From sequence record CP054387.1: 64,000 nt of DNA; one strand, 5' to 3'. The translations under genes and the position numbers were made by a program. Shown here in pieces: positions 29,098-30,824 of the stretch; position 1 is the stretch's first letter, and every line of letters begins with the position of its first letter. Source of the DNA: Escherichia phage CMS-2020a. The notes under the pieces are model-generated. The model had not been told where the DNA came from. It was given only the letters and a program-made list of their open reading frames with translations, and did no database searches.

Positions 29098-29749
29098 CTC
29101 TTCATCCTCACTTCGTTTCTATAACGTCTAAATATGCTGTTTACTTGTTGGTGTTATTATCGCAATAAGATAAAGGCGAAAAAGGATTTTATGTCGGGAA
29201 AGCCAGGCTGGGCAGTGAATATCCGGGAACGACACGAGAGCCAGTATTTACGATATTCTGCTCTACGCGCGCCGCGGGGCTGGTGGGTAGAATAATCCTC
29301 TCCCCGAAAACCTACTGAAATCGATTGTGACCCGCTGGCTGTCTGGCACAATTACGCTGTATCTGGCATTCAGAGGGAATCCAGCGGTAAGCAAGTCAGC
29401 CTGCACGTGAGCGCCTCTCTTCTTCCCGCACATTACAGGTGGGTAGCTGCAACTCTCTCGCTATACCGGTACGCCGCCGTTCCTGAACCGGCATCGAGCC
29501 TTTTCCCGAAATCCACACAGGCAACTCGACCGTTTCCCTGAAAATCCCCAGCCGTTTCTGTAGCGTATGCAACCTTTTCTCTGTATGGACCGAAGGCTGA
29601 CCGTAGGGGTGTTACGGGGGGTGATGGTAAGATGTTGAATAAATACGAAAAAGGAGGCGACACACCTCCTTCCCTCTCCACTTATACATACCTGGCTTCT
29701 TCGCTATACATGTTGTGTTTTATCTGTCTCAACCTCTCTATAGGCGTTA

Positions 29750-30560
29750 ATGCTCACTCCTTCCAGAATGTTCTATACGGCGACTATTTCTGTTGGTGAA
29801 TTGGGTGTGTTGTTTTCTCTGTCGGTGTATGTGGTTTCGTTAGTTTTGCGGTGGTTCTTCTATGGGGGTGTTCTCGTCGTTTTGGTGATTGTTCTTCTCC
29901 GTGTATGGAGTAATGGCAGGTGGGCGATTGCTTTCGTTATTGTGTTTGAGTTGTTTGTCTGGAGTGTGTGAAGGCTTTTGTAGTTATTCGTGTATTGGGT
30001 AATGGCGTTTCCCGTGATTGTTATGTTTCGTGTCTTTTGGGATTGAGAGAAACCTTGCGGTTACAGGCTTCGTTAGGGTTTCAGCGGTTCAGGTGTTTCT
30101 TCGCTGTTTGGGTAATGGCGTGTCGTGGGTATCGCGCGTATGAATGTTTTCGGATTGCCTGTGAAAGTTAGGTTGGTTGTCCGGTAGCCTGGGGAGAAGA
30201 GGTGGGTCTTTTCGGTAGCCTGCCATAAAGAGGTTGGTTGTTTTGGGTAATGGCATATGTGTTATTTGGTTGTTTTGTTATGCCTGAAAATAAGTTGTTT
30301 ATATGGTTGTGTAACGCAACGGGAGCGATTTTGAGCGTGTGTTTTTGTTGGTAGTGTGTTGAGTCGTCTGTGGTGAAATTTGGACGCTGTGGCGCTATCT
30401 GCTGCGTAGAATTACGGGTATAAGAAGTGATGTGTGATAACGTCAATTTTTTAGACCAAATCGGGAGAAAGCGTTGATGTTTCGTTGATCTGTTATTTAG
30501 TTGTTTTCTTATTGGTATAAACAACCATAACCTATTGATATTTAATGATGTGATTGCTGG
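29750..30560. other. G+T-skewed non-coding region with short GGTAATGGC / GGTAGCCTG repeats
   Basis: Plus strand almost devoid of A and C over about 800 bp; ORFs here are low-complexity translations of the skew. Confidence 0.5.
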
Positions 30561-30638
30561 TATGGGAGGGTAGTAGTGGCGATCAACGGGTTCTTATAGA
30601 AAAGAATCAAATTGTGACCGCCATTATCAACGGTTTGA

Positions 30639-30824
30639 TTAGATGAGATGGTCTAATTCATCATCTATCATGGCTTTGACGCTGGAGTCGTTCACTCCAT
30701 ATTTATTTATGAGCTGTTTCAGCTCTGTCGAAAACTGAAGGTAGATATCGTGAGCGTTTTTCACTGTAGGTTCAACGCCACTCATTTCAAGCGCCTTTAG
30801 TAGATATGAGTCTTCTTTAAGCAT
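30639..30824 (-). CDS. hypothetical small protein
   Basis: 61-aa ORF. Confidence 0.3.
   Translation of the reverse strand: MLKEDSYLLKALEMSGVEPTVKNAHDIYLQFSTELKQLINKYGVNDSSVKAMIDDELDHLI

Follow-up and report, generated by a model that had tools for sequence, protein, structure and literature searches.

A long, conserved C-rich and G-poor tract at the cargo border of an SSU5/pHCM2-like phage-plasmid is a candidate Rho-dependent terminator

The window analysed here is a 64,000-nucleotide stretch of Escherichia phage CMS-2020a (CP054387.1), an SSU5/pHCM2-like phage-plasmid, and the feature under study is tract Y, a strand-skewed non-coding tract that runs leftward on the minus strand from about 30700 to 29640 within a gene-free gap of 1.5 kb. 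The composition of the tract and the RNA levels across it in a relative are best fitted by a loading and termination zone for Rho, a role absent from the candidates named in a preliminary description of this DNA made from the sequence alone. The tract is tentatively read as a very large terminator or insulator that depends on Rho, lies where a cargo hotspot ends and has a hairpin as a backstop; this reading, which falls a little short of an even chance, was chosen because it is the simplest mechanism that fits the composition, the position, the orientation and the RNA drop. Rho-dependent termination is known as a mechanism; its form here would be unusual, being very long, sequence-conserved, modular and located at a cargo border. 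The literature that was searched holds no description of the tract.

The plus strand of 29750–30560 consists of 17.1% A, 12.6% C, 30.6% G and 39.7% T. Its G+T fraction of 0.703 rises to 0.742 in 29790–30400 and peaks at 0.767 among 300-nt windows, against a mean of 0.496 (standard deviation 0.040) over the 64 kb. No other skewed tract is present in the 64 kb, where all other 300-nt windows lie within a G+T of 0.34–0.66, and G+T nowhere exceeds 0.64 in the approximately 91 kb scanned of the related plasmid p09EL50. The extreme G+T skew given in the preliminary description is therefore real, but its wording of almost entirely G and T is too strong for an actual 70–77%, and the left third of the gap (29100–29750) is unskewed with a G+T of 0.504. 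The GC content of the skewed tract is 37–49% throughout. The short repeats of that description also hold, as GGTAATGGC occurs in three copies where 0.34 are expected, with the variant AGTAATGGC as a fourth at 29909–29917, and CGGTAGCCTG occurs in two copies inside 31-nt tandem units at 30145–30238. A G/T cluster at 26655–26745 that had been described as related is genuinely paralogous to these 31-nt units. Tandem Repeats Finder gave no relevant output, and neither trinucleotide bias, RNase E motif depletion nor TATAAG enrichment is significant in the tract. The substitution spectrum, used as a test of selection on composition, gave no clear signal either way. A mutational origin of the skew through deamination was rejected because leftward transcription would then be expected to leave the opposite strand bias; such an origin is also incompatible with conservation that exceeds the level of coding DNA.

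Every gene between 26098 and 33484 is encoded on the minus strand, so transcription through the tract would yield the C+A-rich complement of the plus strand. This leftward RNA would contain 40% A, 33% C, 12% G and 14% U. Rho is known to load on C-rich, G-poor, unstructured and untranslated RNA. A C>G bubble, as defined by Nadiras et al. 2018 (PMC6144790), extends without interruption over 29731–30697 with the minus strand as the non-template strand, and comprises 890 window starts, a mean C–G difference of 18% and an area of 16,103 %xbp, compared to 5,709 for the runner-up in the window. In that study, every tested template with a bubble of more than 78 bp or an area of more than 700 terminated with Rho in vitro (PMC6144790). 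The core run, in which every 78-nt window has a C/G ratio of at least 1.5 and at least 25% C, spans 741 nt from 30495 to 29755, and the next longest run in 128 kb, both strands counted, is 258 nt. There are 101 YC dimers in the 741 nt, and the longest [(YC)N9-13] chain has n = 4, which is the minimum among known terminators. The tract has these sequence-level features of Rho-utilization (rut) sites: a bubble of at least about 80 nt, a YC chain of n ≥ 4, and an RNA that is single-stranded and ribosome-free as judged by its weak folding and lack of coding signal.

The leftward RNA is the least foldable in the window, with minimum free energies of −7.6 to −22 kcal/mol per 200 nt compared to a mean of −51.3 (standard deviation 8.9), and the whole 781 nt reach a folding energy of just −124 kcal/mol. 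Sliding RNAalifold analysis of 13 diverse copies gave a structure conservation index (SCI) of 0–0.35, mostly below 0.25, on both strands of the tract body. The covariance and structure search that had been suggested as a check came back empty, since Rfam provided no match at the gathering score for the whole window, nor at E ≤ 10 for 28900–30800, and the tract body has no conserved structure. The sole conserved RNA structure is a hairpin at the 3' end, which is specific to the minus strand. The consensus fold of this hairpin has −11.6 kcal/mol and an SCI of 0.59 on the minus strand against −1.1 kcal/mol and 0.08 on the plus strand, and the relevant transcript is accordingly the leftward one. 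A structured or highly expressed non-coding RNA, as the preliminary description had suggested, is mostly contradicted by the low SCI of both strands, by the least foldable 200 nt of the window and by the near-absence of RNA from the 5' part in ten lysogen samples of a close relative. Its proposal that the RNA could be read from either strand can be narrowed, as the gene orientation, the strand-specific hairpin and a conserved leftward promoter-like site all favour the minus strand.

The absence of credible open reading frames (ORFs), as first described, is borne out by frames that are unstable between relatives and by the lack of codon periodicity. The ORFs on both strands vary in position and length among the relatives, and no periodicity was detected in 90-nt windows of the tract, where the phase ratio reaches at most 1.42; a neighbouring real gene used as a control has a phase ratio of at least 1.6 in all 90-nt windows and codon-position entropies of 0.62/0.47/1.01. 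Neither a conserved frame nor the excess of third-position variation that marks protein-coding DNA was found in the tract. The most persistent plus-strand ORF is hydrophobic (29851–29971); variation is lowest at its third positions, and in this window it carries a frameshift. The open frames at 29750–29971 and 29968–30171 on the plus strand and at 30168–30524 on the minus strand are composition artefacts, as G+T-rich DNA yields hydrophobic frames and C+A-rich DNA yields frames rich in Q, N, T, P and H. In the public annotations of PhiR41_1 and Cyrano, such composition-driven ORFs are entered as hypothetical proteins.

Re-analysed RNA-seq data of E. coli LF82 carrying the related phage Cyrano (OV696614) are provided by Misson et al. 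(PMC9928086, S1 Table); RNA-seq of LF82 with Cyrano is deposited as GEO GSE154648. The gene that runs into the tract, CYRAN_102, is listed as a moron and has log2(FPKM+5) values, where FPKM denotes fragments per kilobase per million, of 6.0/5.6 in LB, 9.2/9.0 in B6 and 8.4/8.3 in MB1, followed by CYRAN_103, a spurious ORF that corresponds to 30168–30524 of the window, with 2.32/2.32 (0 FPKM), 2.85/2.80 and 3.35/3.63, respectively (PMC9928086). From CYRAN_102 to CYRAN_103 the RNA thus drops to zero in stationary-phase LB or by 65- to 270-fold (approximately 270-fold in B6) over about 110 nt, and this interval contains a near-invariant 57-nt block of the tract, element (i). CYRAN_104, which covers the hairpin and the following type B repeat zone, has values of 2.6–4.7, and the next gene downstream, CYRAN_105, reaches up to 7.5–7.8 in macrophages independently of the tract (PMC9928086). 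The 5' part of the tract shows 0–14 FPKM in all ten samples, including the macrophage samples in which neighbouring operator-controlled genes reach about 180 FPKM. These levels indicate that the tract is silent or its RNA unstable in lysogens and that transcription of the genes beyond it starts from promoters of their own.

The 1.5-kb stretch exhibits 97% identity to Shigella sonnei plasmids of 107–109 kb and to phage PhiR41_1, and approximately 91% identity to phage Cyrano (pLF82). A more sensitive search with the skewed kilobase matched 839 plasmid records from Klebsiella, Escherichia, Enterobacter, Salmonella (including S. Typhi), Citrobacter, Cronobacter and Shigella, with about 70% identity between genera. 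The collection of 62 full-length copies was reduced at 97% identity to 40 non-redundant copies, which retain the skew and the layout at approximately 60–100% identity. The skew is kept in all copies, with a minus-strand C+A of 0.61–0.71, and the boxes are kept too. Annotation by the NCBI pipeline leaves a gene-free gap of 1.4–1.9 kb at the tract in every lineage examined, and the ORFs entered by other annotators disagree.

The upstream neighbour of the tract differs, with at least eight arrangements among the 40 copies, and the tract is therefore regarded as the fixed edge of a cargo hotspot. These neighbours include metG and small genes in this window, a GIY-YIG nuclease, and a DUF262 protein with a type I restriction system; in most lineages the upstream cargo gene lies on the same strand and its stop codon is 10–60 nt before element (i). 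The metG gene at 31322–33484, encoding a full-length methionyl-tRNA synthetase, and the adjoining plus-strand apbC/mrp are cargo of the E. coli/Shigella lineage, and in other lineages the metG spot is occupied by nucleases or restriction systems. Downstream of the tract, the small genes each have their own promoter followed by a 19-bp palindrome, AGAAAACAAnTTGTTTTCT. The neighbouring proteins were all of unknown function when compared with Pfam and PHROGs, and the homologue range of a 135-aa neighbour was too narrow to reach distant relatives.

In the proposed mechanism, polymerases leaving the variable cargo or moron genes would enter an untranslated RNA that is C-rich, G-poor and nearly unfolded over approximately 750–900 nt. 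Rho would bind the RNA of the tract, catch the polymerase and release it, and the hairpin at 29674–29648, followed in this lineage by a U tract, would act as a backstop. Cargo expressed in the plasmid (lysogenic) state would then not drive the repressor-controlled early genes from 29097 to 26098, and this insulation would be the selected function. Phage-plasmids of the SSU5/pHCM2 type occur widely in E. coli, Shigella, Salmonella Typhi, Klebsiella and Enterobacter, and their cargo includes resistance and defence functions. The tract is a fixed border of their cargo hotspot and among the most conserved parts of the early region, and annotation pipelines skip it or insert false ORFs. A Rho-based insulator, if confirmed, would explain how variable, constitutive cargo can lie beside tightly repressed lytic genes without triggering them, and would provide an unusually clear natural case of a very large, sequence-conserved Rho loading zone. 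The boxes of the tract are a concrete starting point for finding the regulatory proteins of this phage group.

Read on the minus strand from 5' to 3', the tract begins with element (i) at 30576–30632, which has the pattern CGTTGAyAaTGGCGGTCAC..TTTCTATAAGA..CGTTGATCGCCAC and contains a 9-bp inverted repeat (TGGCGGTCA/TGATCGCCA). Its conservation is 0.89–0.90 among the 40 non-redundant copies, and its 21-base core is found exactly in 67 viral contigs. A match to the IHF consensus at 30640–30628 was dropped, being kept in merely 17 of the 40 copies. The first leader-like box, ATACCAATAAGAAAACAACTAAATAACAGAT (30487–30517), resembles the starts of early transcripts and includes one half of the operator. 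Four CGTTGAT motifs flank this box, and two of them lie beside it on the plus strand at 30472 and 30483. A candidate leftward promoter, P2, follows at 30416–30445 and consists of TTGACG and TATACC separated by 18 nt, the latter without the usual final T (−7) of the −10 hexamer. P2 was missed by a consensus promoter scan because of this atypical −10. It is the only conserved sigma-70-like site on the minus strand inside the tract, found in all 13 diverse copies with a score of about 7, and a position weight matrix (PWM) scan of these copies recovered P2 and a weak site in element (i) and nothing else on that strand. The same scan found no conserved rightward promoter able to read the G+T body. 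According to the Cyrano RNA-seq data, P2 is inactive, or the RNA made from it unstable, in lysogens.

An operator-like palindrome, TAAACAAnTTrTTTTC, lies at 30286–30301 of the minus strand, and a second leader-like box (30257–30283) is located 3' of it. This is the same 19-bp palindrome that follows the −10 of the early promoters. The type A units follow at 30145–30238 as 2.5 tandem 31-nt copies of ACCnACCTCTT-N5-CAGGCTACCG-AAAAG, with one to four cores per genome. A likeness of CGGTAGCCTG to ops/RfaH signals was rejected, since CGGTAGCCTG is on the template strand for leftward transcription. Four GCCATTAC boxes (30254–30247, 30119–30112, 30006–29999 and 29917–29910; two to five per genome) are distributed along the tract at lineage-dependent spacings of 89–166 nt that are out of helical phase, and the last of them lies inside the most conserved 3' block, CCTGCCATTACTCCATACACGGAGAAGAAC (29880–29935). 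An unconserved spacer at 29770–29705 is followed by the hairpin and its U-rich tail (29638–29674), which has the form GGGAAGGAGG-TGTGTCG-CCTCCTTTTTC with 12 pairs and is terminator-like in this window. Among 24 distinct sequences that retain the hairpin, three of ten pairs show compensatory changes, and G-U pairs are numerous. Beyond it are five type B cores of the pattern GRAAMGGYBS on the minus strand at 29579, 29558, 29536, 29505 and 29483 (29474–29579), spaced by 21, 22, 31 and 22 nt; several lie inside small TTTC-N2-3-GAAA palindromes, and their copy number ranges from zero to six across the genomes. The region 29200–29470 is poorly conserved, and the non-coding stretch ends with the promoter and leader of the next gene (28879–29097), located at 29135–29190 of the minus strand, containing TTATTGCGATAATAACACCAACAAGTAAACAG and invariant across genera.

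A second locus with the same order of repeats, cassette X, is located at 25965–26750 of the minus strand. It comprises type A units (26665–26750), a promoter with an operator, a gene encoding a 160-aa protein (26098–26580), a terminator and type B repeats (25965–26050). The three type A units of cassette X are paralogous to and collinear with the 2.5 units of the tract and are positioned directly upstream of the promoter, and the type B-like array after the terminator is paralogous to the type B repeats of the tract. The order from A to B and a similar distance of about 620–760 nt are found in 31 of 31 loci, with 687 nt for Y and 756 nt for X in this window. The type A part of cassette X is shorter, C-rich and lies in untranslated RNA right after the hairpin that ends the upstream gene. 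The 160-aa protein has no structural neighbour. A scan of viral contigs with the type A pattern found only chance matches or coding repeats outside SSU5-like elements, and neither the boxes nor the paired A/B cassettes have a known counterpart among those that could be tested. Gene X and the tract have equal record counts in Enterobacter (90), Salmonella (49), Citrobacter (25) and Cronobacter (9), and the tract therefore appears to be a core part of gene-X-carrying elements in these genera.

The palindrome AGAAAACAAnTTGTTTTCT occurs at about ten sites in the window (16383, 26598, 27363, 28265, 31171, 31222, 35160, 44823, 45552 and 55774) compared to 0.07 expected. Most of these sites, such as 26598, 28265, 31171, 44823, 45552 and 55774, directly follow the −10 of a small-gene promoter, and those at 31222 and 35160 are upstream of the −10 and near the −35. 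The palindrome is presumably the operator of the element's master (lysogeny) repressor and would define an early regulon. CYRAN_98, an S24 LexA-like peptidase that is homologous to a gene near 34650–35040 of the window, and CYRAN_43 are among the most expressed genes of the element in lysogens. The expression of CYRAN_98 rises further in macrophages, and it may be part of the lysogeny switch.

Several observations weigh against a terminator as the whole function of the tract. Approximately 80 nt are sufficient for Rho, and the 750–900 nt available are far beyond this need. A Rho loading site requires composition and not sequence, but the conservation within the tract is blocky, with discrete boxes, and the identity to the window is 0.68/0.69/0.60/0.90 for the tract against 0.60/0.60/0.49/0.63 for the adjacent protein gene in the same genomes. 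The tract also contains a conserved promoter-like site, with the P2 pattern kept in 33 of 40 copies, and what is predicted to be a complete operator in 39 of 40. The U tract of the hairpin is found here and in Cyrano but not in the Salmonella, Enterobacter and Citrobacter lineages. The tract is still complete in several Klebsiella plasmids whose upstream genes are oriented away from it. The Cyrano values are per-gene counts from lysogens of a relative that cover the 5' part and the 3' end of the tract, and in such counts rapid decay is not separable from termination. The invariant boxes, the internal promoter-like site and the operator go beyond termination and hint at an additional role in which other factors would take part. 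Such a role, which we regard as unlikely in either form, could be that of an unfolded, C-rich RNA of 0.8 kb that decoys Rho or another single-stranded RNA binder in the lytic cycle, or that of an assembly site for protein and DNA (for example an SSU5-type lytic origin) that shields itself from transcription with a Rho loading zone; the specific binding sites would then be the GCCATTAC, type A and type B boxes.

Known systems resemble the tract in part. It shares with C>G-bubble rut terminators such as lambda tR1 and those of E. coli a YC-dimer chain, a collapse of the RNA level at its start, as seen in Cyrano, and a nearby hairpin, but is approximately ten times longer than needed, is conserved in boxes above the level of coding DNA, holds a promoter-like site and an operator, and has Rho only as its presumed agent (PMC6144790). 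Like the lambda PR'-tR' leader, the tract is non-coding, starts near a promoter-like site, ends at a terminator and is found in a temperate phage. The lambda leader is short, made constitutively and terminated ahead of genes that are antiterminated, whereas the tract has no late genes downstream in the same direction, the genes that do follow have their own operator-controlled promoters, and no Q-like or nut-like signals were recognised.

The invariant boxes are best accounted for by a protein-binding array, another of the roles named in the preliminary description. Under this alternative, the tract would be an array of binding sites on double-stranded DNA for proteins of the phage-plasmid, as a hub of the early regulon or an origin of the lytic cycle, and the C-rich transcript would only keep incoming transcription off; it is possible, though we consider it doubtful as the function of the tract. 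The direct-repeat boxes are discrete and invariant (GCCATTAC in two to five copies, type A in one to four, CGTTGAT in four and type B in zero to six), the type A units of cassette X precede its promoter at a spacing of 30–31 bp in the manner of activator sites, and the type B cores are spaced by 21–22 or 31 bp with several small palindromes. A full copy of the global operator inside the tract, conservation above that of coding DNA and transcriptional silence in lysogens also speak for such an array. It leaves without reason a strand skew that continues through the variable spacers, the GCCATTAC spacing is out of helical phase and differs by 22–31 nt between lineages, and the analysis identified no protein that binds the boxes; the 160-aa product of cassette X is without a structural neighbour. 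For the lytic origin, a role put forward in the preliminary description, no support was found: the tract has no adjacent initiator gene, no conserved DnaA box (a lone DnaA-like 9-mer has two mismatches and is not conserved) and no AT-rich unwinding zone. Among known arrangements, iteron arrays such as the RepFIB iterons and P1 incA are similar in that the gene-free tract holds short direct repeats of several families, with a type B spacing of about 21–22 bp. They differ in their initiator, DnaA box and AT-rich zone, and the RepB iterons of this element (GTATGCTGTCAGCGGTAAT, 15 copies) are unrelated in sequence and lie approximately 34 kb away together with RepB, which excludes a plasmid origin at the tract. 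In Y. pestis pMT1 (NC_003134, 37600–38750), cassette X is retained with its A-to-B order, and IS1541 is found where the segment from the tract to the sbcCD-like genes, about 30 kb in the E. coli relatives, is expected. This indicates that pMT1 has lost the tract through an IS-associated deletion, yet it persists and replicates as a plasmid. The GCCATTAC boxes were also considered as RepB iterons on account of a 14-nt match near repB, and this was rejected because the iterons differ and the match is a ribosome site with a start codon.

Rather less likely than the DNA array is a long non-coding RNA that acts in trans and is transcribed only in the lytic cycle, from promoters of the tract itself, and that is unfolded so that its boxes and C-rich body titrate Rho, Hfq, ribosomal protein S1 or a small RNA (sRNA). 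The promoter-like site and the strand-specific 3' hairpin do bracket the skewed zone, the RNA is extremely unfolded with repeated and conserved single-stranded motifs, the operator inside the tract is compatible with derepression on induction, and a precedent exists in AgvB, a prophage-encoded C/A-rich anti-sRNA (PMC4104026). This RNA would, however, have to be reconciled with 0–14 FPKM in the 5' part even in those macrophage samples where the operator-controlled neighbours are expressed, with a P2 that lacks a conserved −7 T, with the shortening by Rho that is expected of an untranslated C-rich RNA, and with the absence of any Rfam match up to E ≤ 10. Within the element, no complementary partner of at least 13 nt was found in a plausible place. 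The duplex with GcvB R1 has −33.6, compared to −33.0 (standard deviation 2.3) for composition-matched shuffles, and the idea of a GcvB sponge was abandoned as having no support beyond composition, GcvB being the sole sRNA tested and the expression data those of lysogens. AgvB (Tree et al. 2014, PMC4104026) is likewise a non-coding C/A-rich RNA encoded by a temperate element of enterobacteria, but is short, stable and Hfq-bound with a defined GcvB seed, whereas the tract is about 0.8 kb, undetectable in lysogens and complementary to GcvB at the level of its composition. A coding role of the plus strand for short hydrophobic membrane peptides such as a type I toxin, with the minus strand as an antisense RNA, is very improbable. 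Plus-strand ORFs of 35–77 aa, rich in V, L, F, G and W, do recur at 29792–29971 in most relatives, with length differences that are mostly multiples of three. Against them, the third codon positions are the least variable (0.65/0.62/0.56) in a tract without periodicity, the frame is broken in this window, no properly spaced Shine-Dalgarno sequence or conserved rightward promoter is found upstream, hydrophobic open frames arise from G+T-rich composition alone, and the RNA is absent in lysogens. There is next to no likelihood that the tract is variable junk, a set of decayed promoter modules or an assembly artefact, even though parts of it resemble the promoter and leader modules of early genes and 29200–29470 is poorly conserved. 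Misassembly and a lack of conservation, which the preliminary description had named among its refuting outcomes, are ruled out because the same skewed tract recurs in 62 full-length copies from independent assemblies and in over 800 plasmid records. The junk reading is already refuted by sequence comparison, with the tract more conserved than coding DNA and the skew kept at 60% identity.

The plasmid replication origin of the element begins at approximately 63775–64000 of the window, with GATC-containing AGATCC repeats and the first RepB iterons (GTATGCTGTCAGCGG), and 15 of these iterons flank repB in the related plasmid. The other large unannotated gap of this family is outside the window, at 82540–84366 of the p09EL50 record; by eye it resembles a cluster of tRNA genes, and its strands are not skewed. 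The 64 kb contain 15 copies of Chi (GCTGGTGG) compared to about two expected from the length, and two plus-strand copies, at 28863 and 29279, lie beside or within the left part of the non-coding stretch.

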